A DNA stretch of 64,000 nt from a virus. Taxonomy: Duplodnaviria; Caudoviricetes. Where the stretch lies: the IMG/VR virus record IMGVR_UViG_3300028833_000073, positions 32,001 through 96,000 of that record; one strand, written 5' to 3'. Below, piece after piece: positions 3,291 through 57,416 of this stretch (its first letter is position 1; each line of letters opens with the position of its first letter). The notes below the pieces were generated by a model. That model made no database searches. It saw nothing but the letters and a program-made list of their open reading frames with translations, and was not told where the DNA came from. Made by a program: the position numbers and the translations under genes.

Positions 3291-4487
3291 TTAATAGTCA
3301 GCTTCCCATACAGCAAGCTCAGCCATTGCCTCTTCCATAATCGCAGACTCTTCCTTACGCTTATAAGCAACTGCCTTAGCAAAAATACTACGATTCTGCT
3401 TATTGTTGAAGTCATAGATCTTAAGAGAAACTTGAGTTGCCTTAAGAACTGCAGACTGCACAATATTAGCAGTACGAGAAAGCATACCTAAAGCTCTCTG
3501 ATGTTTACTAATATTTTCAGAACGAGCATTTTTAGATTTATTATCAGTTCCAGCGGCACCCCATGAAGTACTAGCTGTTGAATATACTTTTGCTTTACCT
3601 TTTTCACTCATATCTGTATCATAGGCTACAGCAGTATGAGATCCTTCATCATTATCATTATCTTTAACTGGAGAATTCTTAAAATTATTATTAGAAGCTT
3701 TTTCAAGATCCTTAATAATCTGATTCATGTCTTTGTTAAGATTATCATATTGCTTCTTAATAGCTTTACGAGTATCCTTAAAGCCCATCATTTCAGTCAT
3801 AATATCATTTATATTTACGCTATCAGTGGTTTCATCTTCAAAAGCCTTATCAAAAGCTTCTTTTTCAAACTCTTTTTCACTTACACTAGATTCACCAATG
3901 AAAGAACCAAGAAGCTTTTCTTTTACATCTTCACCGTCAAACTTTTCATCTTCTTTGCTAATATCTTTATTGTTAATAATATCATAAGTAGAAATATGGC
4001 CGCCTGCCTTTTGGACTTTTACAGAAAGATTATCAAAACTGATAACTTCAAGAGTCTTCTTCTTACGATGAGAAGGCTCAAAATCAGTTAGATCCTTACC
4101 AATGATATCTTTCTTGTACTTATTAATGAATTCCTTGTTATTCTTACCAAACTTAGCTTCAAGACGAGCCATAAAGCCATTGAAAATAGCCTTAATCTTA
4201 GCCCAAAGCTTCTTGAAGAACTCTTTGATCTTATTGAACATATCTCCAATAGCACTCTCAGAGAAGTTCATAACTTCATTCTCATTAACACCTTCATTAA
4301 CCATTAAGCAAGCCTGCATATCTGTCTTAACTCCAGCTTCTACTAGAGCCATTTCATTCTGTAGGCCTACAATCTGTGCAATCTGGGCAGAGTATACACC
4401 ATCATCATAGCCTTCGGCCTCTTGAATATTAAGAGGGGCACTATACCCATTCATAGTATCCATAATCTGATTGGAAAAGATACCCAT
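3291..4487 (-). CDS. putative internal head/virion protein, paralog family member 3
   Basis: MGIFS start; FSE|SAIGDMFNKIKEFFKKLWAKIK; C-terminal KEES motif; late promoter at 4553-4564. Confidence 0.7.
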   Translation of the reverse strand: MGIFSNQIMDTMNGYSAPLNIQEAEGYDDGVYSAQIAQIVGLQNEMALVEAGVKTDMQACLMVNEGVNENEVMNFSESAIGDMFNKIKEFFKKLWAKIKAIFNGFMARLEAKFGKNNKEFINKYKKDIIGKDLTDFEPSHRKKKTLEVISFDNLSVKVQKAGGHISTYDIINNKDISKEDEKFDGEDVKEKLLGSFIGESSVSEKEFEKEAFDKAFEDETTDSVNINDIMTEMMGFKDTRKAIKKQYDNLNKDMNQIIKDLEKASNNNFKNSPVKDNDNDEGSHTAVAYDTDMSEKGKAKVYSTASTSWGAAGTDNKSKNARSENISKHQRALGMLSRTANIVQSAVLKATQVSLKIYDFNNKQNRSIFAKAVAYKRKEESAIMEEAMAELAVWEADY

Positions 4488-4649: not shown

Positions 4650-5849
4650 TCACTTAAGAGCAAGATCTGCTAAGAATCCAGAACCACCAGTTGGTGTATA
4701 AGACTCTTCATATGCACTTTCACTCTTAGACTTATGAGCTACTGCTGCTACGATACAAGCTTTATACTGACGAGAACGATCATTAATCGCCCTAAGTCCT
4801 TCTGCATTAACAGCGGTTAGTAATTCTGCACTAAGATGGGTCCATTTCAAATAATAGTTAGCTCCTGTAACCCTAGCTTCATAATGTTTGCTTTTTTCTT
4901 TATCATTATCTTTAGCCTGCTGTGTATCTCCAGAAGGTTTAACAGGAAGCTCATGATGACCTCCCTTAATAATAGAATTTAATACTTTTTCGGTATCTTT
5001 AATCGTCCTATCAGATGCCTTATATGCATCATTTAGTTCTTTCTTGGTTTGCTTTGAAGTCATAAGTTCTGTAGCATAATCAGAAAGATTAATCTTATCA
5101 AGTTCTTCTTTTTCACTTTCGCCATTACGGAAAGCTTCAAATAAAGCCTTTCTAAATTCAGTAGCATCCATTGATCCACCAGATTTTGCACCTGCAGCTA
5201 CAGCTACTTCACCACGTTCCTTCTCTGCCTCATCAGTAAATTTTTCATTATCTTTCTTAAAATTATCATTATTAGCATCATAAAACTGGCCTGCTTTAGA
5301 ATCACCTGCATTTTTTTCGATACCTTCAAAAGTCTTAAAATTAGATTCACTAATACCACATTTTTTAATAGCATTAGTAAGGTTGTCAAGTGTAAACTTA
5401 TATCCCTTGAAAGTGAAATCACTTAGATCCTTACCACTATAAATCTCTTTCTTATACTTTTGAACGAACTCCTTATCGTTCTTCATATAAGAATCAATCT
5501 TCATAATGAAACGCTTAAAGAGAGCCTTAATCTTCTCCCATACCTTCTTAAGGAAATTCTTAATACTCTCAATGAAGCCTTCAACTACTACTTCAGTATA
5601 TTCATACTCCTTACCAGTCTGCTCCATATAGACTAGCTCGTTACCCATTAAAGCCTTCTCAATCATATTGTAATTCTCATTGATATCAATGACTGCCTGA
5701 AGACCACACTCAGTGAGATCCATACTCTCTGAGAATACAGTATCTAGACTATCATCATTTAGCACTGCTTCCTCAAAACTCTTATTTTCAGTGATCTCAC
5801 TATCATAACCTTCATAGCTATTCTTAACTGTCTGGCTAAAAATACCCAT
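4650..5849 (-). CDS. putative internal head/virion protein, paralog family member 2
   Basis: MGIFS; VVE|GFIESIKNFLKKVWEKIKALFKRF; DKEFVQKYKKEIYSGK nearly identical to the 5996-7207 product. Confidence 0.7.
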   Translation of the reverse strand: MGIFSQTVKNSYEGYDSEITENKSFEEAVLNDDSLDTVFSESMDLTECGLQAVIDINENYNMIEKALMGNELVYMEQTGKEYEYTEVVVEGFIESIKNFLKKVWEKIKALFKRFIMKIDSYMKNDKEFVQKYKKEIYSGKDLSDFTFKGYKFTLDNLTNAIKKCGISESNFKTFEGIEKNAGDSKAGQFYDANNDNFKKDNEKFTDEAEKERGEVAVAAGAKSGGSMDATEFRKALFEAFRNGESEKEELDKINLSDYATELMTSKQTKKELNDAYKASDRTIKDTEKVLNSIIKGGHHELPVKPSGDTQQAKDNDKEKSKHYEARVTGANYYLKWTHLSAELLTAVNAEGLRAINDRSRQYKACIVAAVAHKSKSESAYEESYTPTGGSGFLADLALK

Positions 5850-10631: not shown

Positions 10632-11572
10632 TCAAAGACATATTTGATTGTATTTCTATACTTATCCTGTTCAGTGCCAATCATAGGAGGATTACCAAAT
10701 ACATTATTTACATATCCTAGGTCTTTATCATATAGCTTAGCGTTAGATCCGCTGTATTGTTTACTAAGCTCATTGAAGTCTTCTATAATCATAGGATCCA
10801 TATCTTCTACCATATTAGCTTTGAAGTTAACAGTGAACTTGAAATTACCATCTTCTGGCATATCACTGAATGCACTACGAGGAACATTCTTAGGATATAC
10901 TCCATATAACTTAGCCCAATATATAACCTCTCTAGCATCCTCTGCTAGGATGAATTTGAATACAGCCATTTGGTCATGTATCTTTCTCTCTGTTATATAC
11001 TTACCACCACGATACTGCATAATATTTATACCACCATAAGACTTCTTTATCTCATACTCATCATAGAGCTTGAAGAATGTATATACATCTCTATACTTGT
11101 TATCTAAAAACTCCATAGAGAAGTCAAAGTCATCATTACTTGGAGCTGAAGACCTACGATAATAGATCTTTTGTCCCCACAAATTCTCTGCTGTTTCCAT
11201 ATCTTGTGAGTCTAGATCAGGAAGATCTAGATTACTTGCTCTATGATTATATAGAATAGCAGAAAAGGGTAAGCCATTCTCACTAAGAGATAGATCTGTT
11301 ATAGCAGGATGTCTTTCGTTTATGAATTTATTAAAGATAGGAGTTCCTACACCCCTTACATATAGATCTGGTTTAGTAAAGAACACATACTCGAATGTAT
11401 TACCTACACGATTATATGGATCTAAGTAATTGAATCTAATGAACTTATCTGTATCTCTTATATCTTCTCTATCAAATAAGCCATTACCCATTCTAGACTT
11501 CTTTAAGCTAGAATCTTCATCTCCTCTGCTCTCAAATGATTGAGCAGTTACGTTATCACCTGAATTAGGCAT
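10619..11572 (-). CDS. baseplate/tail-tube-initiator-like virion protein
   Basis: YVFFTKPDL and YWAKLYGVYPKNVP...FTVNFKA resemble tail-tube-fold proteins; overlaps the wedge gene start. Confidence 0.55.
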   Translation of the reverse strand: MPNSGDNVTAQSFESRGDEDSSLKKSRMGNGLFDREDIRDTDKFIRFNYLDPYNRVGNTFEYVFFTKPDLYVRGVGTPIFNKFINERHPAITDLSLSENGLPFSAILYNHRASNLDLPDLDSQDMETAENLWGQKIYYRRSSAPSNDDFDFSMEFLDNKYRDVYTFFKLYDEYEIKKSYGGINIMQYRGGKYITERKIHDQMAVFKFILAEDAREVIYWAKLYGVYPKNVPRSAFSDMPEDGNFKFTVNFKANMVEDMDPMIIEDFNELSKQYSGSNAKLYDKDLGYVNNVFGNPPMIGTEQDKYRNTIKYVFEWRD

Positions 11573-11641
11573 ATCAATTCACCTCTTTAAGAAGTATTAC
11601 TTTAAGGTCTTAAAAATCATATAATAAACCAAATCTTAGAC

Positions 11642-11657
11642 ACATATTATAATTGTG
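11642..11657 (+). promoter_or_regulatory. early promoter A(C/T)ATATTAT-N6-G
   Basis: ACATATTATaattgtG followed by the shared leader ccgtatag and a GAAAGGA RBS. Confidence 0.7.
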
Positions 11658-11694
11658 CCGTATAGTTAATAATGTTTTAGAAAGGATGATTCTT

Positions 11695-12141
11695 ATGAAG
11701 GTAACAAACAATGACAATGTTATCACGGTTGTATTTGAGGAGAGTGATATTGTAAAGATCTCAGCATGGATTGGTTATCATAAACGTGCTAGGAACTATG
11801 GTAGTCCAGAGGCTAAGAAAATATATGAAGCAAAGAGAGATCTTATTCTCGGTAAGGGCGAAGGAGATAATGCATTCAATATTATCTTTGATGAATTACT
11901 CTATAAGAATGGAGAGAACAAAGGATTGTTTAAAATGAAAGTAATACTCATTACTGCTAAAGGAGAGGATGCAGACGCTGCTCTTAAGAGTAGCTTTAAT
12001 GTTGATACTGTCACCAAGGAAGATAGGAAAGGAGTTATTCATGATTTGATTAAGAAATCAATAGAAGTATCTGAAACTAATGACAAGGCTTTCTATGATA
12101 AAGTAAAAGCAAGAGGATATGAACTGAAGTTTGAGATCTGA
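11695..12141 (+). CDS. early hypothetical protein
   Basis: ORF track entry; start moved to ATG 11695 after the RBS. Confidence 0.75.
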   Translation: MKVTNNDNVITVVFEESDIVKISAWIGYHKRARNYGSPEAKKIYEAKRDLILGKGEGDNAFNIIFDELLYKNGENKGLFKMKVILITAKGEDADAALKSSFNVDTVTKEDRKGVIHDLIKKSIEVSETNDKAFYDKVKARGYELKFEI

Positions 12142-12225: not shown

Positions 12226-12861
12226 ATGAGAGATACAAATACTATAAAAAGATTCAAAGACTATGATTTGTTTGTTGAAGAATGTAATGAGCTTAAAGAT
12301 TTTGTTATTGATTACATGGGAAGAGATAAATATGGATCAGTAAATATAAAGATGATTAAAGCATTTTCTTCTTTTGAAAAATCTACACTATTTGGTAGAT
12401 ACTATCGACCAACTGATACGATTGCTATATATCTGTATAATATACGCAACCGTACAGAAATGCATCAACATGCTAAGTTATTAGCAATAACAGTGATAAT
12501 ACATGAACTAGTTCATTCTAATAGATGTGCAGATACTAAGAATGATATTATCTTTAATGCACACAAAAACTATAAGAATGCAATGGAATTAGATTGCAGA
12601 CTACAAACCATGAGAATATTTACTGGGATGAAAGACATACTTATCAAAAGGCCATATTTATTTACTGAAAAAGCAATCAATCAGCAGATAATCAATATTA
12701 AGATTGATATTTTAAAGTATTACTGGAATATGATACCAGATGATGAATCCATTGGTATAAAGACCAATGATAAGATACGTGAGAAACTAAATGAGATATC
12801 TGATCTACTAGAACAAGAAGATATCTTTAAAGATGTTCCTGAATTTGGATGGATAAGATAA
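12226..12861 (+). CDS. putative zincin-like (HExxH) metalloprotein
   Basis: FGRYY...IAIYL...TVIIHELVH and a downstream E, typical of SprT/IrrE-like zincins. Confidence 0.5.
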   Translation: MRDTNTIKRFKDYDLFVEECNELKDFVIDYMGRDKYGSVNIKMIKAFSSFEKSTLFGRYYRPTDTIAIYLYNIRNRTEMHQHAKLLAITVIIHELVHSNRCADTKNDIIFNAHKNYKNAMELDCRLQTMRIFTGMKDILIKRPYLFTEKAINQQIINIKIDILKYYWNMIPDDESIGIKTNDKIREKLNEISDLLEQEDIFKDVPEFGWIR

Positions 12862-12920
12862 TAAATTTAGAGTACCCTAAATGGGTACTCTATTTCTTCT
12901 GACCAAATTCAAAAATAGGC

Positions 12921-12936
12921 ATATATTATATATGTG
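12921..12936 (+). promoter_or_regulatory. early promoter
   Basis: ATATATTATatatgtG preceded by ACCAAATTCAAAAATAGGC. Confidence 0.7.
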
Positions 12937-13074
12937 AGCTTAGAGCAATAAGTTTTAAGAAAAGGAGTTGATTTTATAAACAAAGGTAATAGAGATGTTG
13001 ATCAGGTTGTCACTGGTGGACAATACCTTTGTGTAGATTTTTATGACTAATATGACTATAGAATATAAGTATTT

Positions 13075-13360
13075 CATTCACCTGAAGCGAAGTTCCGAGA
13101 GTCGATCCTGGCGCAAGACATTGTGGGGGCGCCTAGTCTTAGAGCATGGTTAGCTCTATGCGCGTAGATAGTAGTGGAAGGAAAGTTTCTGCCGCGCACG
13201 AATAAGGACGTAATAAATCCCTGGAACGCTGAATCGTATTGGTGATCGGAGGTGGATTAATAATTGAAGATAGTATCAGATTCTCCGCCGAATATGGATC
13301 TATTTGGTCCAGGCGTAAAATTAGAATTGTAGCGAAAGTTACTTACGCCAAATATCCTGA
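13075..13360 (+). ncRNA. candidate structured ncRNA of unknown family
   Basis: GC-rich and lacks a long plus-strand ORF; lies between an early promoter and a terminator; several stems with G-U pairs, a GAAA tetraloop and a possible pseudoknot. Confidence 0.5.
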
Positions 13361-13379
13361 AGAAATACTTGAATTGATT

Positions 13380-13410
13380 AGAGTACCTTTTGGGTACTCT
13401 TTTCTTTTTT
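13380..13410 (+). terminator. GAGTACC/GGTACTC-stem terminator
   Basis: agagtacc-ttttg-ggtactct plus T-tract. Confidence 0.75.
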
Positions 13411-46955: not shown

Positions 46956-49900
46956 ATGTCAGCTATAGTAGATGATCTGAAAAACTATATGCTATACAAT
47001 AAAAAGATATATCTTCCAATTAATGATGATGACCGTAAAAATGGAAGTGCTATCTACTTACTTACTCCAAACTTGAATTCTTCTAAAGATATCTTAGGAG
47101 ATGTATATAATCATACTAAGTATGATGGTGCTATTAACTGGGCTAGCTACTATATGGAAAAGGATATGTCCTTCTATTTCCATACTGAATCTCATAAGAT
47201 GTCTAGACTAAGATCTAATCTTATTCTAGAGGATAGTGAATATACACTTGAGACAAATGTTAAAGGGACATTAAGTGAGTTCAAACGAGTGGAAATAAGT
47301 GAAGAGTTAATAGATCAATATAGTGGAGATTGTGATGATGTAAATGGATTGATTGGTTACTTTCCATGGACTGGTTATCTATATATGAATGAGAATGATC
47401 AGATAGTTGCTGGGTTAAATGTGAATGTAGATGATAGAGATATTCATAAGATCTTTGTGGTCGATGAAGAGAAGTATGGTTATCTATATAAGGATCTAAT
47501 TGCAGAAGCTAGAAAGATGAAAGCTAACTACTGTACCATTAGCAAGAATAATACAAGTGCTATCAAAGCACTTGAAGAATTTGGTTTTACTAAGACTGAA
47601 GACTTAGTAGACAATATAAAGATGCAGTTTAAGATTCCTATCACTGAATCTACTAGAGAGTCTGAAGTTATTGACTTCTTAGAACACTCTACTATGTTTA
47701 GACATATTAAGAACAATATCCAGTTTACTGAGCAGTATAAAGCTTTTAAGAAGCTAGTTATCTACTACTGTGAGTTCTTCAATATTAAGAAAGAGATAGG
47801 TATTCTAGGTGCTATCATTGTCTGTAGTAATAACCTAATCAATCCAGAAGAGTTGAGAGGGAATCTAAAGATTCTTAACTACATGAGTCAAGAAGAGATT
47901 GCTATTGCTTATAAGGCTGCTATGGGAGCATATGAACATAAGTTCATCGGAGAGAATATATATGATAGAATTCTATTTGATGGTTATAGACTCATACACT
48001 TCACAGATATTAATGTCATTATTAGAGATGAAGTCTTAGCTTACTATGATGAGCATAGTATTAATGGAAGATGGGATAATAACTTCCTATACATGAATGA
48101 AGTAGAAGAGATAGTGGAGAATATTAAGAGGAAGCATAGTACTAGTTCACCTAATCATATGATTCTTAATCTCTCTTATAGCTACTATAGGAAAGCTCAT
48201 AAGAAAGTACAATCTGCTATAAATAAGGGATTAACTAATAAAATTATCATTGACTATAGGGTCACTGTAAAAGAATCTGCTGAAGATGATATAGCTGCTA
48301 ATATACTCAATGAAAGTCATATCTCTTTTGGGTATGAGGATGAGAAGTTTACTAACTATGATCCTGATTGGAGATTCAAGTTATTTCCTAACCACAGAGG
48401 ACCTGGATTTGGATTTACTACTAAGACTGACTCTAAGAATCTAAGAGGAATCATTATAAGTTCTGGTACTGAGGTTAAAGGTGTTATAGGTGTAGATGAG
48501 TATAATAATATCATTGAGATGTACTGGACTGATATCAATCCTACTTTCTTACTAATGATTGCAGAACGTAAGTTCTATGCCAATAAAGTAGCTGTACCAA
48601 GGGGATATAAAGTAGCTATAGAAGCTCTTCAAGAATGTTCTAGCTGGTGTGAAGTAGAAAGAGATGAGCATGAAATTCACTTTGATTGTTACTCTCAAGA
48701 GAGGATTCCATATAAAGATATTGGGATTACTAAGAATGTAGCAAATATCTTTAATAGACTATCTTCTACTGACAAGGAGTATCTAGGTAATCAGTATCTT
48801 AACCCAGTATGTATCTCAAGTACTATCTGGAGTAAGGTATTAGAGGATACAGCTCTTGTAGATGTCTATGTACAACCTACTATGCCAAAGATCGGATGGA
48901 TTGATATTGCTGTGGTAGAATCTCAGAGAGGTAAAGGTTATGCTCTACGATTGATAAGAGAAACTCAAGAAGAGATAAAGACTAAGTTCAAAGATATAGA
49001 TGCTCTAGGATGGGTATGTCATAAAGACAATACTGCTTCATATAATCTTGCCACTAAAGCTGGTTTCTATCCATATAAAGAAGTAGAAGACCACAAGTAT
49101 CTTCTATGGACTATCCACAATACAGATATGATTCCTAATACATTCATAGAAGAAACAGAAGAGACTGAATGGACTGTAAAAGGTATAGAAGAATCATCTA
49201 CTATCAATGGTGATGGAGTAATGATGTTCATAGATGAAGATGTATCTAAGGTAATGGATGATGCTAAGTTTGGATCTAAGCTAAAGAAGATTATGTGGGA
49301 AGATAGAATTAGGAATAATAAGCAGGTACTACAGATATATGACTCTGTTAAGAAGGATACTAATGGTGGTATCAAGTACACCTATCTAGATCTTAATCTC
49401 TATAAGGGAAGGAATCTATTTGTTGACTTGTCATTCTATAACATTAGCTTCTTTAACAACTATACTAAGGCTGCTCCGAATGAAAGAGGACTAAATGAGA
49501 TGTACTTTGAGCTAGTATCTAGATTGATCAATGATAAAAGAATCAAGGATAAATATAAGAAAATCAATGTAATCATTCCTATAGAAGATTGGTGTAAAGA
49601 AGATATAAAGAAATATAAGGCTGAAGCTGTTAGAAAGGCAGACTACTGGGAGAATCTTAGTCCAATAGGTTGCTTCTTATTCTATGCAGAGAAGAATCCT
49701 TTAAGACTTCGTCAAGAGTTTAAGAATATTAACTTCATCTTCATTAGTGAGAGTGGTAGTTTCTTTAAGACTAACTTCACTGACTATGATAAGTCTAAAG
49801 ATTTTGTTAAGTTTAGAACTGCTGTACATAGCTTACTTAAGAGAGTCCATATTCCTAAGGATGAGACTTATGATAAGAAAGCTATAGTTCATAGTGTACT

Positions 49901-52900
49901 AGATAAAATGGAGTCTAATGGAGAAAACAAAGTAGTCATCAATAGCATTATAGCTAAACCTGAAGAACCTGGTAGTATTGATATACATGATCCAGCAGAT
50001 ATGAATGAAGAACAAAAGAAGAAAGCAGTTGTAACTAAGATTACTAATGCTGCTGAGAAAAGTAAGAGTCCTGAAGATGTAGTTGACACTATGTCTAAAG
50101 ACAATGAGTATGCCAAGGAATATACTGAAAAACTACTTAAGGATCTAGCTGATAATGAAACAGGGAATGTTAAGCTATCTGCTGCTAGAAGTAAGAGATT
50201 AGATAGTTTGAGTGAGAAGTTCTTATCTCAGAAGGTAGTAGATAATAAAGCTAAGTTTAATGGTACTATGGAGGAGTATATCAACTATAATTCTAATGCG
50301 GAAGAGTTACCTGAGACTGCATTACCTATAGAGAGTATCAATGAAGGATGGAAGCATCTTAAGTTTACTAACTTTGATGCTAGATATAGTGTAAGATCAG
50401 ATATCTATGCTATTCTATACTCATTTGAGAATAAGACTAGTAGGTTATCTATAAGGGATAAGATTGATATTGTAGATACTAGTACTACAGAAGACTGGAA
50501 GGAAACATGGACTGTTCCTTTTGAAGCTGATACAGGTAAGAGATTCAAGTTGAAGTTTGATGTTCCTTTGTTGAAAGATAATAGAAATATGGTATTAGGT
50601 GGTAATGACAAGACTATGAATGGTCAGCTAGTACTACTACCAATATCTAAGACAGATGAAGATACAGCACAGATAGTATCTCTTTACAATAAGATCTTTA
50701 TTAGAAGATATAGTATGGGCAACTGTAAGGCTAATAGGGAAACCGATAGGTTAAATAAAGCAATAGAGATTTTTACTAAAGAGCATCCAAATATTATGAA
50801 AATAACATATGGAGATAGCTCTAAGAGTAATGTGAAGTATGCTCTTCCTTTCGACTATACTGAGCTAGCTAGTATGTACTATAGCATAGAGCTGTATAAG
50901 AATAATAAACTAGAGCTTAAGATACTATTCAATCAAGACCAAGCAAGAAAAGAAGCAGGTCTTAAAGATGATGATACAAGAATGCCATATGGATACACTG
51001 TAAGAAATGGTAAGAAGGAAACTCTATTCTGGTATACTGATGATAGGATGGTATTTGCTAGTCAGGTTGTAGGTGTTATAAGTGGAAGATCAATTGAGTT
51101 TTATGATGTATATAAGAAGATAAAGCCAGGTGCTAAGCATTGCTATAGTAAGGCAAGCATTTTAGGTACTGAGATTCCAGTGATAATCATTATGGCTTAT
51201 TGTGAAGGATTGATAGAAGCTCTTAGAAAAGCTCATATCAACTATATTATCTCTGATAAGAGGGTCAATAGTTATAATGATACTCATGATATGATCAAAT
51301 TCAGTGATGCTTATCTATACTATGAAGATACTTATATTGGATCTATGCTTATGAATGGTATTAAAGATGTAGATACTAAAAGTCACTCTATACAAGAAGT
51401 AGATTCTAAGTCAATGTGGACTGAATTCTTAGATGAATATGGTGGTAGAGCTAAGTCCGATGGTCTTGATAACTTCTATGATCTTATGATGGATCCTATC
51501 ACTATCGAGGTATGTAATGTATATAAGCTTCCTACTGACTTCTGTGAGATGTTAGCTTATGCAAATCTCTTACTATCGACGAATGAGTATATAAAGCATA
51601 CTGATCTTAGTTCTAATAGATATAGAACCAATGAGATGATTGCTGTTCATGCTTATAAATGCTTAGCAAAAGCTTATGCTAATTATAGACTACAGCTTAA
51701 GAAGGAAAGATCTAATGTAGCTATGACTATGAAGCAGTCAGCTATCATTGACTCTATCATGGAAGAATCCATTATGTCAGATCTATCCATAATGAATCCT
51801 AACCTAGAAGCAGAAGCTATCAACTCTGTAGGATTCAAAGGACTTACTGGTATGAACAATGATAGATCTTACTCATTAGACAAGAGAACTTATGACAAGA
51901 GTATGACTAATAAGATTGCTATGTCTACTGGATTTGCTGGTAACGTAGGTGTTAATAGACAGACTACTATAGATATGCAGATATATGGTACTAGAGGATA
52001 TATAAAGAACTCGGATATGAAAGATGCATCTGTTACTAATACTCTTAGCATCACAGAAGCATTAACTCCATTTGGATCTACTAGAGATGACCCATTTAGA
52101 ACTGCTATGACTAATATCCAGACAAGTAAGCATAACATGAGAATCAAAGAGTCCATGCCTATGCTAGTGACATGTGGTGCTGATCAAGCATTACCATATC
52201 TTACAGGAGATACATTCTCGTTTAAAGCTAAGGGTAATGGTAAGGTTATTAAGAAAAATGATGATTATATGGTCGTAGAGTATGATAATAAGACTAGAGA
52301 GATGATAGATCTAAGAGAGAATGTTAAGAAGAACTCTGATGGTGGTTTCTATATCACTGTGAAGCTAGATACTAATCTTAAGAAGGGATCTAGATTCAAA
52401 GAGAAGGATATATTAGCATATGACAAGGTAGTATATAATGACTCAGTAGGTGACGGTAAGAATATAGCTTACTGTGTTGGTGCTTTAGCTAATGTAGCTT
52501 ATCTTAATACTGATGAAGGATTTGAAGATTCTGCTATTATCTCCAATAGATTAGCAGAAGCTTTATCATCTGAAGTAGTAGTAGAAGTTGCTAAGAACTT
52601 ACCTTGCAACACTAACATATTTGATATCGTTAAGAAGGGTACTAAAGTACAAGAAGGTGACACTCTACTCTTATTCCAGTCTCCATTTGAAGAAGAGGAT
52701 GCTAATAGAATCGTCAAGAATCTTGCTATGGATAAGAAAGAAGTATCTGAGCTAGGAAGAATACCATTAAGATCTAAAGTAACTGGTGTAGTACAAGATG
52801 TAAAGCTCTATAGAACAGTAGAACTATCTGAGATGTCTCCTAGTCTTAGGAAGTTGTTCAAGGAATATGAGTCTAAGATAGAAGTAATGAGAAAGGACTC

Positions 52901-53294
52901 TGAAGGAATGCTCAATAAGGTTCCTCTAGAAGCCAACTATAAACTTCCTGCTGTCTCTAAGATGAAGAATCTAGAAGGTAAGGTAAGAATTGAGTTCTAT
53001 ATAAAGTATAATGACAAGATGGGTATCGGAGATAAACTAGTATTCTACTCAGCAGTAAAAGGTGAGACTAAAAATATATTCCCCAGGGGGTTAGAACCCT
53101 ATACAGATGATCGTGGTAGTTCTGAAATTATTGATTCACTTTGTCCATTACCTAGTCTCTTACATCGTATGGTAGCATCAGTTACGATTGTTACTGGTCT
53201 CTATAAGGGTGTAGTAGAATTGACTAGATATATGAAGGAAGCCGTAGGATTAAAATATATTCCATATAATCCAAGAGAAGAAATTAAAAAATAA
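46956..53294 (+). CDS. phage multisubunit RNA polymerase beta-like subunit (probably virion RNAP) with N-terminal GNAT-like domains
   Basis: C-terminal ~950 aa has beta motifs: GNVGVNR, DDPFRTAMTNIQTSKH, GFEDSAIIS, GDKL....KG, RM; GNAT motif A IAVVESQRGKGYA and HKDNTASYNLATKAGF near 48900-49070. Confidence 0.88.
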   Translation: MSAIVDDLKNYMLYNKKIYLPINDDDRKNGSAIYLLTPNLNSSKDILGDVYNHTKYDGAINWASYYMEKDMSFYFHTESHKMSRLRSNLILEDSEYTLETNVKGTLSEFKRVEISEELIDQYSGDCDDVNGLIGYFPWTGYLYMNENDQIVAGLNVNVDDRDIHKIFVVDEEKYGYLYKDLIAEARKMKANYCTISKNNTSAIKALEEFGFTKTEDLVDNIKMQFKIPITESTRESEVIDFLEHSTMFRHIKNNIQFTEQYKAFKKLVIYYCEFFNIKKEIGILGAIIVCSNNLINPEELRGNLKILNYMSQEEIAIAYKAAMGAYEHKFIGENIYDRILFDGYRLIHFTDINVIIRDEVLAYYDEHSINGRWDNNFLYMNEVEEIVENIKRKHSTSSPNHMILNLSYSYYRKAHKKVQSAINKGLTNKIIIDYRVTVKESAEDDIAANILNESHISFGYEDEKFTNYDPDWRFKLFPNHRGPGFGFTTKTDSKNLRGIIISSGTEVKGVIGVDEYNNIIEMYWTDINPTFLLMIAERKFYANKVAVPRGYKVAIEALQECSSWCEVERDEHEIHFDCYSQERIPYKDIGITKNVANIFNRLSSTDKEYLGNQYLNPVCISSTIWSKVLEDTALVDVYVQPTMPKIGWIDIAVVESQRGKGYALRLIRETQEEIKTKFKDIDALGWVCHKDNTASYNLATKAGFYPYKEVEDHKYLLWTIHNTDMIPNTFIEETEETEWTVKGIEESSTINGDGVMMFIDEDVSKVMDDAKFGSKLKKIMWEDRIRNNKQVLQIYDSVKKDTNGGIKYTYLDLNLYKGRNLFVDLSFYNISFFNNYTKAAPNERGLNEMYFELVSRLINDKRIKDKYKKINVIIPIEDWCKEDIKKYKAEAVRKADYWENLSPIGCFLFYAEKNPLRLRQEFKNINFIFISESGSFFKTNFTDYDKSKDFVKFRTAVHSLLKRVHIPKDETYDKKAIVHSVLDKMESNGENKVVINSIIAKPEEPGSIDIHDPADMNEEQKKKAVVTKITNAAEKSKSPEDVVDTMSKDNEYAKEYTEKLLKDLADNETGNVKLSAARSKRLDSLSEKFLSQKVVDNKAKFNGTMEEYINYNSNAEELPETALPIESINEGWKHLKFTNFDARYSVRSDIYAILYSFENKTSRLSIRDKIDIVDTSTTEDWKETWTVPFEADTGKRFKLKFDVPLLKDNRNMVLGGNDKTMNGQLVLLPISKTDEDTAQIVSLYNKIFIRRYSMGNCKANRETDRLNKAIEIFTKEHPNIMKITYGDSSKSNVKYALPFDYTELASMYYSIELYKNNKLELKILFNQDQARKEAGLKDDDTRMPYGYTVRNGKKETLFWYTDDRMVFASQVVGVISGRSIEFYDVYKKIKPGAKHCYSKASILGTEIPVIIIMAYCEGLIEALRKAHINYIISDKRVNSYNDTHDMIKFSDAYLYYEDTYIGSMLMNGIKDVDTKSHSIQEVDSKSMWTEFLDEYGGRAKSDGLDNFYDLMMDPITIEVCNVYKLPTDFCEMLAYANLLLSTNEYIKHTDLSSNRYRTNEMIAVHAYKCLAKAYANYRLQLKKERSNVAMTMKQSAIIDSIMEESIMSDLSIMNPNLEAEAINSVGFKGLTGMNNDRSYSLDKRTYDKSMTNKIAMSTGFAGNVGVNRQTTIDMQIYGTRGYIKNSDMKDASVTNTLSITEALTPFGSTRDDPFRTAMTNIQTSKHNMRIKESMPMLVTCGADQALPYLTGDTFSFKAKGNGKVIKKNDDYMVVEYDNKTREMIDLRENVKKNSDGGFYITVKLDTNLKKGSRFKEKDILAYDKVVYNDSVGDGKNIAYCVGALANVAYLNTDEGFEDSAIISNRLAEALSSEVVVEVAKNLPCNTNIFDIVKKGTKVQEGDTLLLFQSPFEEEDANRIVKNLAMDKKEVSELGRIPLRSKVTGVVQDVKLYRTVELSEMSPSLRKLFKEYESKIEVMRKDSEGMLNKVPLEANYKLPAVSKMKNLEGKVRIEFYIKYNDKMGIGDKLVFYSAVKGETKNIFPRGLEPYTDDRGSSEIIDSLCPLPSLLHRMVASVTIVTGLYKGVVELTRYMKEAVGLKYIPYNPREEIKK

Positions 53295-53313
53295 ATGAGT
53301 ATAACATATTAGT

Positions 53314-53540
53314 ATGGTGGAACCAAGTGCCGTAGTGATTGTACACTTTCGCTGGGATACTTTACTTGGAAGGCCATCATACAGATGAGGGAGACAAGAG
53401 GCCGCTTTATAGAGTCGTGAAGCTTGCAAGTGGGAAGACGTGGTACCATCTTTCTTAGGCCTGTAAGGCGGTCTAGTTTCCCGTTTATATCAATTTCTTA
53501 AAACCACGTCAAAATATATCCACTACCAATGGTAGTGGAA
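53314..53540 (+). ncRNA. candidate structured ncRNA A
   Basis: Own late promoter (53303-53314) and terminal hairpin (53520-53538); long G-U-containing stems; 8-bp long-range pairing. Confidence 0.6.
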
Positions 53541-53566
53541 TTCTATTTTCTTCAATACATTATAGT

Positions 53567-53705
53567 ATGACCATGTTCTTTGCTGGTTGCATTCATTGAG
53601 GGAAGGTGCGGATCCCTTAATGGCTTTTTGCTCATTTGAAAACGCTCTTCTTTTTGTTACACGATATTTATTCCTCTCTTAACGGAGAGGGATAAATATT
53701 TTATT
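53567..53705 (+). ncRNA. candidate small ncRNA B
   Basis: TACA-N6-TA promoter at 53556-53567; stem cattgaggga/tcccttaatg; long terminator hairpin; no RBS or meaningful ORF. Confidence 0.45.
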
Positions 53706-53730
53706 TTTTATATAGATACAACATAAAAAT

Positions 53731-53910
53731 ACCAGAAGTCATGACACTCTTTGAGTGTACACGTTTGCTCATGACAGTATGGTTGGTATTTAGGTTATCC
53801 GGACCTAATACTATGCCTGTGAAAGAAAGTTTGTAGATCCTTTCTTTCCTGGAACGCTTCGTTACAACAGAGAAGACTGGAGGGCGTAACCGCCCTCCCT
53901 CTTCGCTGTC
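53731..53910 (+). ncRNA. candidate structured ncRNA C
   Basis: AACA-N6-TA promoter at 53720-53731; chain of hairpins ending in ggagggcg-taac-cgccctcc. Confidence 0.55.
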
Positions 53911-53920
53911 AAAAATGTGA

Positions 53921-53954
53921 ATATCTCTGAATTCAGAGATATATTATATATGTA
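53921..53954 (+). promoter_or_regulatory. early promoter overlapped by a 22-bp perfect palindrome
   Basis: atatctctgaattcagagatat (53921-53942) overlaps ATATATTAT (53939-53947). Confidence 0.6.
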
Positions 53955-53993
53955 GTAATAGGGTACCTTGTTTAACAACAAGGAGGAATTACC

Positions 53994-54101
53994 ATGAGAT
54001 TCTTTATATATCGTCTAGCAGAAACCACCTGCAAAAACGAATGGATCTTTGACGTAATTAATCATGTAATGTTTGATTTACTTATCACTTGTTTGCGATA
54101 A
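53994..54101 (+). CDS. small 35-aa ORF in a highly folded mRNA
   Basis: AGGAGG at 53981; MRFFIYRLAETTCKNEWIFDVINHVMFDLLITCLR. Confidence 0.55.
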   Translation: MRFFIYRLAETTCKNEWIFDVINHVMFDLLITCLR

Positions 54102-54201
54102 GCGACATTACCTCTGATCCTCGTTGTTGTGACTTGCAATCGCTTACGGTGGTATGAATATCACTCGCAATGTCAAACTCAAGGTACCCTATTACTTTTT
54201 G

Positions 54202-54831
54202 TCAAATAGTCTTATCTTTATATTCATTCTCATACTTTCTAGATAGAGTAACACAATACTTATTCATCTCTTCATCTTCTTCACCATTGAGAGTATATAG
54301 AATCATTGTATGGAAGTTAGCATCAAAGGTTACTGCTAGTCTACTTAGGATGTAGTATGAACTAATCATCCACCAACCAGCATCTTGCTTATCATTGAAG
54401 AGAATATCAAAGACTTCTCTATCAATACCAGTTCTATAAGCAAGAATATTAGTGTTTCTTTTTTCTATGTTTTGTTCTCTACAATACTTGAGAACTAGTT
54501 CCTTCATCCATTGGAATTCCGTATAAGGATCTCCCTTGATAGGAATAAACTCTAATGGTTCATCTATCAATCCATACAGATAGTCACAATTGACATTAAG
54601 CTCTCTTGCTATCTCGTATACAAAAGAATCTGGGAACTCGTCTCTTACATAGAAACTATGTAAGATCTCATTAAGTCTTTTATCTGTATGATGGCTATGC
54701 ATTATAAATTTATCTTTAAGACTCTCTACTTCTATTTTTTTCTCTTCACATAACCTTCTAACTCTCATGCAATTTATTGAAATCATTATTTCACTCCTTC
54801 TTTCTACAAGGGTCATAATCTGGCACTTCAA
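54202..54831 (-). CDS. putative XRE/HTH transcriptional regulator
   Basis: EIARELNVNCDYLYGLID is typical of XRE HTH C-terminal helices; a second degenerate copy follows; true start probably internal (ATG ~54786). Confidence 0.5.
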   Translation of the reverse strand: MKCQIMTLVERRSEIMISINCMRVRRLCEEKKIEVESLKDKFIMHSHHTDKRLNEILHSFYVRDEFPDSFVYEIARELNVNCDYLYGLIDEPLEFIPIKGDPYTEFQWMKELVLKYCREQNIEKRNTNILAYRTGIDREVFDILFNDKQDAGWWMISSYYILSRLAVTFDANFHTMILYTLNGEEDEEMNKYCVTLSRKYENEYKDKTI

Positions 54832-55168
54832 AGACTCCAGATTTAACAGATTGCTCTTCTAAGTAATCTTCTAGGGTAGTTACCTTGACGACCACTTGAT
54901 TTTGCTTTTTAGAAAAATAGGCATCTTCAAGTGCCCTGTATTTTGTACATTTAGAAAAATCTATAGGTTCCTTAATAAGAGGATCCACTATAGCGAATAC
55001 ATTGCCTCGTTTTATATTAGCCATCCTTCCTCGCTTATATTGTTCATTACCATAAGCATCATCAGGTTGTCTAATATAAATCTTTCTAAGTAATCTATTG
55101 CTTCTATCATAATCATCAACTTCTAAAAACTCTTTAGGAATAACTGTAGATTCATCCATTCTTATCAC
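54791..55168 (-). CDS. hypothetical protein
   Basis: GAGGTGA RBS; late-type promoter at 55178-55189. Confidence 0.65.
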   Translation of the reverse strand: MIRMDESTVIPKEFLEVDDYDRSNRLLRKIYIRQPDDAYGNEQYKRGRMANIKRGNVFAIVDPLIKEPIDFSKCTKYRALEDAYFSKKQNQVVVKVTTLEDYLEEQSVKSGVFEVPDYDPCRKKE

Positions 55169-55227: not shown

Positions 55228-55304
55228 TGGCGGCCCGTATTGAATTCGAATCAATGACCTAGGCTTTAGAAGAGCCTTGCTCTATCCAACTGAGCTAACG
55301 GGCC
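55228..55304 (-). tRNA. tRNA-Arg (anticodon UCU) with encoded CCA
   Basis: ggcccgttagctcagttggatagagc-aaggct-cTTCTAA-agcct-aggtcattgattcgaattcaatacgggccgCCA folds as a cloverleaf; late-type promoter at 55315-55326. Confidence 0.93.
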
Positions 55305-56120: not shown

Positions 56121-56231
56121 ATGACTGTATTGGAAGTAGTATACTTAGACATGAATTCTAGAATCACAGTGTATGATTTTAAAATTTTACACACCACTAA
56201 CACAAGAGTAATCAAAACCAGTTTCGTATAA
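56121..56231 (+). CDS. small early ORF (36 aa)
   Basis: GAAAGGAGG RBS; MTVLEVVYLDMNSRITVYDFKILHTTNTRVIKTSFV. Confidence 0.5.
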   Translation: MTVLEVVYLDMNSRITVYDFKILHTTNTRVIKTSFV

Positions 56232-56531
56232 ATATAATATAATATAAATCTTGGGAGCCCAGAGCTAGGAACCAGGAGAACGGAGCTAGGAACCTACCCT
56301 TAGGATGGACTTGGAGGCTAAGAAACTCAGCAGAGGAAAAGACTAACAAAGGACAAACTAGGAGAAGGAAGGATCGAGACGGTAACACCCCAATGGAAAG
56401 AGAAGATATAGAGCCTAGGATGGTAAGGAGCGGCAGCTCCTTACATATATAGGAGTGTTGAGGATAAATGAATATAATACTACTATAAGTAGAATAAGAA
56501 TAATAATCTCAATAGAAAGGATAATACTACT

Positions 56532-56843
56532 ATGAGTAGAATAAATGCATATGTACTCTATAACAAGACTAATGATGATATAGGAGTATTCAATAATCTT
56601 ACATCATGTAGAGTAGCAAGAGATACTTATAGAAAGAAGGGTAGATTATACAAGTACTCTGTAGGAACAGAGAAAGAAGCTATTAATATAGCTAGTAAGA
56701 TAATACATAGTATATTTAATCCAGAATTACCAAAAAGATACTATACATTAGTAAAACCTGTAAAGACTAATGAGATGTGTTCAATAAGAGATCTTATCAG
56801 TGAAGTACCAAGATACTATATCAAAGATGATGATATTGTATGA
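56532..56843 (+). CDS. hypothetical protein, possible RNase H1 N-terminal (hybrid-binding)-like domain
   Basis: YVLY......GVFNNLTSC..........YK....EKEA pattern; weak similarity only. Confidence 0.4.
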   Translation: MSRINAYVLYNKTNDDIGVFNNLTSCRVARDTYRKKGRLYKYSVGTEKEAINIASKIIHSIFNPELPKRYYTLVKPVKTNEMCSIRDLISEVPRYYIKDDDIV

Positions 56844-56858
56844 AAGGAAGATACTACT

Positions 56859-57416
56859 ATGAGTAATAAGTTTAAAGTACGTACAAGCAGTAGTAATGAC
56901 TACTTAATCTACATGGTAACTAATAAGTTCAATAGTAAAGGATACATAGGATATACAACTAAGAAGAGAATAGAAGATGCAATAATACAAAAAATACACT
57001 TAGCAATAAACAAGACTAATCCATACTCTATGTTTGACTTAGATGTACTAAGTACTCTTAAGAAGATAGACTATAACTATGACTTCATCTATAAAGCTTA
57101 CTCTCAATTCTTACTAGATACTTTTCCATGTACTACACCAATAGATGATATCAATGATATAAAGATAGCATATATCTATAAATATCATACTTTTACTAGT
57201 GGTCTTAATGATACACTCAATGGAATCAGATATGATGAATTACTAATCTTAGTACAAGAGATTGTTGACATGTATCTTCATGGAATGCCAATAGAGAAGA
57301 TAAGTAATACAATATTCAAACCTGAAAGGATGATAGAGATAATACTGAAAGCTAACAACATAGACATCAGTAATCAACCTAAGTTAATAGATCCTCCATT
57401 CAAGATTGTAATCTGA
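56859..57416 (+). CDS. GIY-YIG nuclease-domain protein
   Basis: LIYMVTNKFNSKGYIGYT; C-terminal HTH-like segment. Confidence 0.65.
   Translation: MSNKFKVRTSSSNDYLIYMVTNKFNSKGYIGYTTKKRIEDAIIQKIHLAINKTNPYSMFDLDVLSTLKKIDYNYDFIYKAYSQFLLDTFPCTTPIDDINDIKIAYIYKYHTFTSGLNDTLNGIRYDELLILVQEIVDMYLHGMPIEKISNTIFKPERMIEIILKANNIDISNQPKLIDPPFKIVI

Follow-up and report, generated by a model that had tools for sequence, protein, structure and literature searches.

We analyzed a 64,000-nt stretch of DNA (the window), comprising bases 32001–96000 of the IMG/VR virus record IMGVR_UViG_3300028833_000073, and found that positions 53303–53912 of its plus strand most likely contain three real small RNA genes of new families, as judged from the sequence of the locus and its relatives. 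The record (158,305 bp; ~64% complete; ~33% GC) is that of an uncultured AR9-like jumbo phage, and the public runs containing the stretch originated from sheep and goat gut. Our model is that the locus comprises three separate small structured noncoding RNA (ncRNA) genes of ~230, 140 and 180 nt (units 1, 2 and 3), each with an AACA/TACA-N6-TA promoter and a terminator hairpin of its own, whose products would act in trans through a hairpin handle bound by a protein. We consider the balance of evidence to tip slightly toward this model as a whole.

The segment lies within a 907-nt gap (53295–54201) between a plus-strand gene for an RNA polymerase (RNAP) beta-like protein and a convergent minus-strand gene of 188 aa. 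This is the largest noncoding gap of the whole record, and it contains no open reading frame (ORF) of at least 60 aa. The promoter consensus used here comes from phage AR9, in which AACA-(6N)-TA/G, the last base being the transcription start site, was defined experimentally as the late promoter read by the non-virion RNAP (nvRNAP) (PMC5312081). The features of the three units are as follows.

53303–53314, plus strand: unit 1 promoter-like motif AACATATTAGTA, an exact fit to the AR9 consensus; predicted start A53314.
53314–53548, plus strand: unit 1 RNA, ~230 nt, minimum free energy (MFE) −80.3 kcal/mol.
53314–53382, plus strand: unit 1 5′ domain, closed by AUGGUGG/CCAUCAU and containing a hairpin (53333–53354) with loop UUGUACACUU (53339–53348).
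53389–53481, plus strand: unit 1 domain 2, with helix 53399–53412/53461–53474 and motif CUUGCAAGUG at 53423–53432.
53484–53518, plus strand: unit 1 single-stranded tail.
53519–53539, plus strand: unit 1 terminator hairpin, followed by a T-run.
53556–53567, plus strand: unit 2 promoter-like motif TACATTATAGTA, with TACA, one base off the AR9 consensus; predicted start A53567.
53567–53710, plus strand: unit 2 RNA, ~140 nt, consisting of a 5′ hairpin, a variable middle and a terminator.
53569–53588, plus strand: unit 2 5′ hairpin, stem GACCA/UGGUU, loop UGUUCUUUGC at 53574–53583.
53663–53700, plus strand: unit 2 terminator of 17 bp, followed by a T-run.
53710–53731, plus strand: unit 3 promoter, ATATAG (53710–53715) plus AACATAAAAATA (53720–53731), an exact fit to the AR9 consensus; predicted start A53731.
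53731–53912, plus strand: unit 3 RNA, ~180 nt, with three hairpins, a linker and a GC-rich end hairpin.
53738–53775, plus strand: unit 3 hairpin H1, loop end GUUUGC at 53763–53768.
53781–53817, plus strand: unit 3 hairpin H2.
53821–53849, plus strand: unit 3 hairpin H3.
53871–53904, plus strand: unit 3 GC-rich terminal hairpin, without a T-run (no U-tract) on this strand.

An earlier reading of the same sequence (the original prediction) had described three tandem late-promoter units that encode no protein. The three motifs are present where it had placed them, and the cluster does lie directly behind the RNAP gene, the first motif beginning 9 nt past the stop codon (53292–53294). The description was also accurate in that each segment ends in a hairpin and in that the segments are poor in ORFs and lack a ribosome binding site. 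It was right only in part about GC content: unit 1 (0.49) and the end of unit 3 (0.44) exceed the flanks (~0.33–0.37), whereas unit 2, at 0.37, is no richer.

Relatives of the locus were taken from the 90%-identity cluster of the RNAP protein (L049, L050 and L051) and from the cluster of the 188-aa protein (L056 and L057). L049–L051 and L057 represent one haplotype, to which positions 52801–53915 of the window align at 90.5%. L056 is more distant, with flanking genes that are 80–83% identical and units 1 and 2 that are only 50–54% identical; in a further locus, L003, the RNAP C-terminus is 80% identical. The unit 1 motif was identical in the window, L049–L051 and L057, and the same place is occupied by AACATATTATTG in L056 and by AACATGAAAATA in L003. 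The unit 2 motif is shared by the window and L049, and its positional homologue in L056 is the canonical AACAATATAGTA. Among the copies of unit 3 the motif reads AACATAAAAATA, AACATAAAAGTA or AACATAATAGTA, and L049–L051 differ from the window only at N6 positions and one upstream base. Thus the motifs persist in lineages whose RNA bodies are only ~50% identical, and close relatives keep the terminators and some hairpin loops as well.

The motif is also enriched in intergenic DNA, which makes up 8.7% of the genome. AACA-N6-T[AG] occurs 169 times, with 32 copies (19%) intergenic compared with 4–12% for permuted motifs. This 2- to 3-fold enrichment is real but modest, and conservation among the relatives compared is the stronger evidence that the motifs are promoters. 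The more restricted AACA-N6-TA is present in 99 copies, such that ~0.3 per strand would be expected by chance in 907 nt. The extended form ATATAG-N-[AT]ACA-N6-TR is found seven times in the genome, five times in front of an RNA gene (unit 3, tRNA-Arg or one of three units in a distal array described below). The original prediction had stated that the same motif precedes the tRNA and structural genes. For tRNA-Arg this was the case in the form of a TACA variant, TACATAGTAGTA, located 13 nt upstream on the minus strand. The part concerning structural genes could not be verified, as the genes preceded by the motif at 1696–2790, 3291–4487 and 4650–5849 (minus strand) are without PHROG annotation, and PHROG and Pfam searches of the motif-preceded genes gave no function. 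By analogy with AR9, the promoters would be read by the phage nvRNAP late in infection. The earlier claim that the RNAs are made late agrees with the fit to the AR9 late consensus, and it is only from this likeness that we infer the timing. With AR9 gp226 (L059:6415–7809) as query, no homologue of this specificity subunit was found in the 158-kb record, which is incomplete, and gp226 proteins diverge fast.

On its plus strand, unit 1 folded with a z-score of −4.48 and none of 200 dinucleotide shuffles was as good, whereas the minus strand (z = −0.80) was no better than shuffles. The consensus fold of the window and L049 contains three double compensatory and three one-sided changes, with no pair broken. 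In the hairpin at 53330–53356, five pairs differ between the two sequences and all five still pair; the double changes are C-G to G-C, A-U to G-C and G-C to A-U, and the 10-nt loop is invariant. Domain 2 is ~97% identical where the RNAP coding DNA is ~91% identical. Its basal helix reads AGGCCGC/GCGGUCU in the window, GGGCCGUA/UGCGGCCU in L056 and, by reading, GGGCUGC/GCGGCCC in L003, and all of these differences are wobble-compatible on the plus strand only. L056 also retains CUUGCAAGUG and the unit 1 terminator. Because G-U pairs account for 10 of the 60 consensus pairs and because folding is strand-asymmetric, we assigned unit 1 to the plus strand. Since the RNAP stop codon is not followed by a terminator ahead of unit 1, transcripts of the RNAP gene could also yield this RNA as their 3′ end.

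Blocks centered on CAAGUG are common to unit 1 and to the GC-rich RNA that comes first after the RNAP gene in L056, L003 and L006; CAAGTG is found in all four lineages (shuffle p ~0.02), and CCCGTTT and GCAAGTG are found in three. When the unit 1 homologues (window, L049, L056 and L003) were aligned as a family with MAFFT, the result was too poor for a consensus fold, and the homology suggested with the L003 and L006 RNAs is based on position, architecture and these short blocks only.

Units 2 and 3 also folded better on the plus strand than every one of 200 dinucleotide shuffles (z = −4.84 and −6.80, respectively). The stem of the unit 2 5′ hairpin is GACCA/UGGUU in the window, GACCA/UGGUC in L049 and GGUCA/UGACC in L056, such that two pairs changed on both sides and two on one side around an invariant 10-nt loop. 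Between unit 3 and L049, changes were found in 3 of 104 paired versus 20 of 90 unpaired columns, with substitutions in the linkers and the hairpins nearly unchanged; the terminator carries one double change, from G-C to A-U. L056 either lacks unit 3 or has other sequence in its place, and homology of the window with L049 stops at ~53915. The original prediction had looked to related phages for homologs with structure-preserving substitutions, and L049 and L056 provide them at the level of local hairpins.

We considered whether short, possibly leaderless peptides are the real products of the segment. In units 1 and 2, every ORF of at least 25 aa, on either strand, is interrupted in L049 by a stop or a frameshift, apart from one 25-aa TTG frame with three changes, all of them non-synonymous. 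Unit 3 contains a 31-aa ATG ORF (53741–53836) that is intact in both haplotypes, a point in favor of a peptide, but it is not preceded by a Shine-Dalgarno (SD) sequence and all three of its substitutions are non-synonymous. Neither an SD sequence nor a conserved ORF was found in units 1–3; within the gap, only a 267-nt module downstream of unit 3 has an SD sequence, which precedes a 35-aa ORF. We regard peptide products as extremely improbable. That these are dedicated RNA genes, as had been proposed, is instead supported by the conserved promoters and terminators, the compensatory changes, the broken ORFs, the strand asymmetry of unit 1 and the negative Rfam, tRNA and tmRNA searches.

The RNAs were not recognized by any search. 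At Rfam gathering thresholds only tRNA-Arg passed, and at E ≤10 the best value within 53100–54400 was E ≥0.26, far below the cut-offs. ARAGORN found no tRNA or tmRNA in units 1–3, and the loci of the relatives likewise gave no Rfam match. The original prediction had not recognized the units as tRNA, tmRNA, signal recognition particle (SRP) RNA, 6S RNA or RNase P RNA, in agreement with these results, and because the Rfam, tRNA and tmRNA searches gave nothing we consider the families to be new. Searches by sequence were similarly negative: blastn of 53250–54250 against 50,697 phage records returned nothing, nhmmer with all units and the L003 and L006 RNAs against ~50 relatives' loci returned self matches only, and exact 22-mers from units 1 and 3 were not present in viral, metagenome or genome collections. 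A covariance model of unit 1 (R1), run against ~50 relatives' loci, L056 (filters off) and the phage's own genome, recovered only three near-identical copies. Related loci were not found with the RNAP C-terminus alone; with an alignment, 41 loci (≤53% identity) were found, none with the RNAs. The gapped pattern GGCCGY..CTTGCAAGTGRG..GCGGYC matched once in viral contigs, inside a 1174-aa ORF, and was dismissed as a chance match.

A particular hairpin appears to link two of the units to other RNAs of this phage group. Perfect 5-bp stems with a 10-nt loop ending in UUUGC occur eight times in the genome, where ~3 are expected, and seven of the eight have the form NNUUNUUUGC; the unit 2 hairpin is the seventh of these. 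The loop ACUUGUUUGC occurs in six hairpin copies, one of which lies in the 267-nt module (54081–54102). Unit 2 fits this class, with GACCA-UGUUCUUUGC-UGGUU directly at its 5′ end behind a phage-type promoter motif, and in the related locus L005 a hairpin CAUGA-UCUUGUUUGC-UCAUG stands directly behind the late motif AACAATATTGTA. Unit 3 hairpin H1 (GUCAUGA...GUUUGC-UCAUGAC) shares the 11-mer GUUUGCUCAUG (GTTTGCTCATG) with this L005 mini-RNA hairpin. The H1 loop is enlarged by an inner hairpin, so that H1 looks like the same handle hairpin with a small hairpin inserted in its loop; unit 3 thus probably carries the handle too. Elsewhere in the genome the hairpin recurs in the following feature.

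74427–74951 (genome 106427–106951), minus strand: tandem array of small RNAs, with units of ~125 nt, each having an ATATAG...AACATAAAARTA promoter.

Within each array unit, a variable 5′ part is followed by two hairpins, UCAAC-ACUUGUUUGC-GUUGA and CUCCCAUCUUCGGAUGGGAG. The array promoters are of the type found at unit 3 and tRNA-Arg. From these similarities, units 2 and 3 appear to be members of a larger small-RNA set in this phage group, one characterized by a single hairpin type. The shared hairpin type therefore points to a common binding partner, and the data suggest that such a partner of the handle RNAs exists.

In our model, one common protein, of phage or host origin, would bind the hairpin handle, with the remainder of each RNA constituting its specific part. 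The RNAs would probably be trans-acting, using short exposed stretches whose sequence stays invariant as the stems around them drift. The candidates for these sequences are the loop UUGUACACUU and motif CUUGCAAGUG of unit 1, the loop UGUUCUUUGC of unit 2 and the GUUUGC loop end of unit 3. Binding of a common partner appears to be the most likely mode of action because units 2 and 3 share the UUUGC-ended loop with the array and the 267-nt module. In an RNA duplex search, the single-stranded parts of units 1–3 matched the translation-start regions of all phage genes no better than shuffled controls did, and complements of the invariant loops were found only at the loci themselves.

The original prediction had suggested that the RNAs could be packaged, bind the phage RNAP, or act as decoys or antitoxins against host defense; of these proposals, only RNAP binding receives a slight hint, from the conserved loops. 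AR9 nvRNAP recognizes the template-strand element 3′-UUGU-N6-AU-5′, requires U rather than T, and initiates on single-stranded DNA (PMC9209446). The units could be decoys or regulators of the phage's own RNAP that, like 6S RNA, titrate or tune late transcription through UGUU or UGUA in their loops, sequences that are the RNA counterpart of the deoxyuridine-containing template-strand 3′-UUGU-5′. One or the other is present in the unit 1 and unit 2 loops, unit 3 H1 and H3, the L056 unit 1 loop and the array loop; the start of unit 2, (U)A-UGACCA-UGUU, amounts to the full template-strand consensus, and the genes adjoin the RNAP gene. However, four-letter words in AT-rich loops are a weak and post hoc signal, and the loops of the array and of the 267-nt module (unit 4) lack a matching UA/CA element 6 nt upstream. 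The folds are multi-hairpin structures rather than 6S-like rods with a central bubble, the search for gp226 in the 158-kb fragment was negative, and the neighboring RNAP gene may encode the virion enzyme rather than nvRNAP. We consider this explanation very unlikely. The same low likelihood applies to an extended version in which the three RNAs, the 267-nt module and the distal array would form one system of promoter-mimic RNAs, displaying single-stranded UGUU or UGUA inside a UUUGC-ended hairpin loop, that bind the AR9-type RNAP or its specificity subunit and tune or shut off late transcription. If true, it would amount to a phage-made 6S analogue whose target polymerase reads U-containing nucleic acid in single-stranded form.

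The location of the segment raises the possibility that it acts only in cis, as a set of stacked terminators or stabilizing 3′ structures between convergent units, the motifs being chance occurrences or giving rise to insignificant transcripts. The gap does separate convergent genes, it contains eight terminator-like hairpins where ~1 is expected, several of which are bidirectional, the RNAP stop codon and unit 1 are not separated by a terminator, and the promoter motif is low in information. Termination, however, requires neither 600 nt nor conserved internal loops nor the almost invariant domain 2 of unit 1. Moreover, the AACA and TA positions are fixed at the homologous sites of the window, L049, L056 and L003 despite variation of the N6 sequence, and the unit 3 promoter is of the same type as that of the tRNA gene. 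A purely cis-acting segment is in our view unlikely.

Alternatively, the hairpins could function as DNA, either as promoters that are hairpin-displayed or antisense, or as replication or packaging signals. A minus-strand motif, AACATGGTCATA (53577–53566), overlaps the unit 2 promoter in back-to-back orientation, the two having TA in common. It is retained in L056 as AACATGACCATA and has an equivalent in L005, AACAAGATCATG; this motif may be an antisense promoter or the mere complement of the conserved UGUU loop. In addition, unit 3 folds equally well on both strands. Against a role as DNA, the hairpins of the array and of unit 4 lack the antisense motif, the structure of unit 1 needs G-U pairs and forms only on the plus strand, and the whole 10-nt loop is invariant, which goes beyond UGUU. 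We judge a function at the DNA level to be very improbable, slightly more so than the RNAP decoy.

Several observations weigh against our model of three trans-acting RNA genes. Unit 1 does not carry the handle. The promoter motif carries little information and by itself is weak evidence. When all units were pooled in consensus folds, 19 of 298 paired versus 53 of 286 unpaired columns had changed (Fisher p = 1e-5) and no changed pair was broken, but these counts are partly circular, as the fold was chosen on the same two sequences. In window-only MFE folds all five pairs with both partners changed still pair; however, of all changed pairs about half are disrupted, and paired positions show no deficit of substitutions. 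With two to three lineages per unit, covariation rests on few events and the statistics are weak; in the case of the unit 2 stem, the covariation was reached by 51 of 500 shuffles. Unit 3 folds as well on the minus strand (z = −6.13) and has no U-tract. Because the consensus folds are partly circular and the window-only folds break about half of the changed pairs, we regard the local hairpins, but not the global folds, as supported. Finally, the expression of units 1–3 and its timing are predicted only. Two sheep-gut metatranscriptome runs from one sample (X5 and X24) contained exact low-depth contigs at 52783–53009, 54458–54849, 56230–56505 and 56821–56957. None of the contigs listed falls within 53276–53977, a result that is uninformative either way given a depth of ~3x and libraries that may lose small RNAs.

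The region behind the RNAP gene differs markedly among relatives. All close lineages have units 1 and 2 in synteny, and in the closest relative, a 296,790-bp contig, the gap is likewise 907 nt; this contig and runs X3 and X4 contain additional variants of the island. At the same spot L003 has two units, in each of which a promoter and a terminator flank a structured RNA that is partly GC-rich, and L006 (RNAP C-terminus 71% identical) has a GC-rich noncoding gap of 960 nt. A GC-rich L003 RNA (11561–11810; ~240 nt; ~60% GC) lies behind AACATATAAGTA. In it, the 3′ strand GCGGCCC of a long-range helix overlaps the terminator hairpin GGCCC-UUUU-GGGCC, and these two mutually exclusive structures may form a switch. 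In other relatives the gap behind the RNAP gene ranges from ~20 to 2099 nt, and at two loci the next ORF overlaps the RNAP stop codon. The RNAP gene is followed in L005 by a TnpB (OrfB_IS605) gene (12300–13406) and in L027 by a tandem repeat (4910–5155) with a 117-nt period, each copy of which begins with TACACAGCATTG. Small inserts concentrate at this site, which, because its contents differ among relatives, can be described as a fast-changing, modular RNA island. The contrast between RNA bodies that are ~50% identical and flanking genes that are ~80% identical makes this one of the points of interest of the locus. Within the window lineage the island contains a fourth element, with the following features.

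53916–54182, plus strand: 267-nt module, an indel with inverted ends at 53954–53970/54180–54196 (17 bp); MFE z = −6.75.
53943, plus strand: early-type motif TATATTAT of the module.
53994–54101, plus strand: 35-aa ORF of the module, with a strong SD sequence.
54081–54102, plus strand: hairpin CUUAUC-ACUUGUUUGC-GAUAAG of the module, over the stop codon of the 35-aa ORF.

This module is missing from L049–L051, L057 and L056, and may represent either a small mobile gene or a cassette resembling a type I toxin. Its presence in the window lineage only, its inverted ends and the absence of unit 3 from L056 give the island a modular appearance, and the contents behind the RNAP gene differ completely in other relatives (TnpB in L005, the 117-nt array in L027, varied gaps). 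Such features would be expected if units 1–3 were small mobile or selfish modules, or their remnants, in a permissive spot, their structure serving mobility. However, the three units have no second genome copy, terminal repeats or target duplications, they carry phage-type promoters and terminators, and synteny of units 1 and 2 extends to all close lineages. We consider mobility of the three units quite unlikely.

The neighboring genes referred to above are as follows.

46956–53294, plus strand: RNAP beta-like gene with a GNAT insert, 2112 aa (PHROG 3148/14872, RNAP beta subunit; E = 1e-128).
54202–54768, minus strand: convergent 188-aa gene, the right border of the RNA island, also beside the island in L049, L056, L057 and L003.
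55231–55304, minus strand: tRNA-Arg, above the Rfam gathering threshold and also identified by ARAGORN.

The RNAP beta-like protein has ~1100 extra N-terminal residues with matches to GNAT acetyltransferases (PHROG 1249/3810; Pfam PF00583 in relatives). It is ~30–33% identical in aa sequence to RNAP beta of its nearest cultured relatives, which include Staphylococcus phage S6 (~33%), Listeria phage LPJP1, Yersinia phage phiR1-37 and the Fusobacterium JD-Fnp phages; these are uracil-DNA and AR9/phiKZ-type jumbo phages. A 7123-aa ORF and genes for virion proteins are located near the RNAP gene. The 188-aa gene had no significant Pfam or PHROG match. Further downstream, a purine- and GGA-rich noncoding tract (56230–56505) follows AACACAAGAGTA (56199); it coincides with RNA contigs from X24 (56230–56435) and X5 (56265–56505) and, among the contigs listed, is the only one of the noncoding tracts within 7 kb of sequence to have an RNA contig.

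Several known systems resemble the locus. The late transcription units of AR9 have the same motif and spacing, with the start predicted at the last base; the motif is found ahead of genes and of a tRNA, and the RNAP beta-like protein described here falls in the multisubunit RNAP group of jumbo phages. The AR9 late units are nearly all protein genes plus one tRNA, with some late promoters antisense (PMC5312081), whereas three consecutive non-protein units are found here. Promoter use was mapped in AR9, whereas here it is inferred from the motif, the gp226 homologue not having been found in the incomplete genome. Units 1–3 resemble trans-acting small RNAs (sRNAs) of bacteria and phages in having their own promoter and terminator and a size of 140–230 nt, and unit 1 in particular resembles sRNAs of the 3′-UTR type in its position at the 3′ end of a coding gene, its conserved single-stranded tail and its terminator hairpin with a U-run. 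They differ from these sRNAs in their phage-RNAP-type promoters, their shared hairpin handle and a complementarity to phage start regions that does not exceed that of shuffles. 6S RNA and Ms1 are abundant structured RNAs that mimic promoter DNA. The loops described here expose the RNA equivalent of a template-strand element next to an RNAP gene, but the rod with a central bubble and an Rfam 6S match are both lacking; the resemblance is only a hypothesis. GOLLD and ROOL are likewise phage-borne, structured and located near tRNA genes; these, however, are single RNAs of 500–800 nt with ornate conserved folds, whereas the present units are three short independent RNAs with no Rfam match at E ≤10. 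As in CRISPR repeats (Cas6-type binding) and ToxI-type repeats, a hairpin of constant type, invariant in its loop and covarying in its stem, recurs in several small RNAs of one genome beside variable sequence. In contrast to those, each unit here has its own promoter and terminator, direct repeats and spacers are absent, there is no cas or toxin gene nearby, and the handle of unit 2 is at the 5′ end.

Few small RNAs have been described for virulent phages, and none with a known function for jumbo phages with their own RNAP; the phiKZ transcriptome yielded one unconfirmed small-RNA candidate, and such RNAs are expected late (PMC8244752). Phage-encoded small RNAs are thus a known kind, and by every search that we ran the three RNAs constitute new families. 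What distinguishes them is their tandem arrangement, the link provided by the handle and the very fast turnover of the island. The locus offers three compact candidates with defined promoters and ends, conserved loops and natural variants, and the shared hairpin ties them to other small RNAs of the same genome, making a common RNA-binding partner or an RNAP decoy directly testable.

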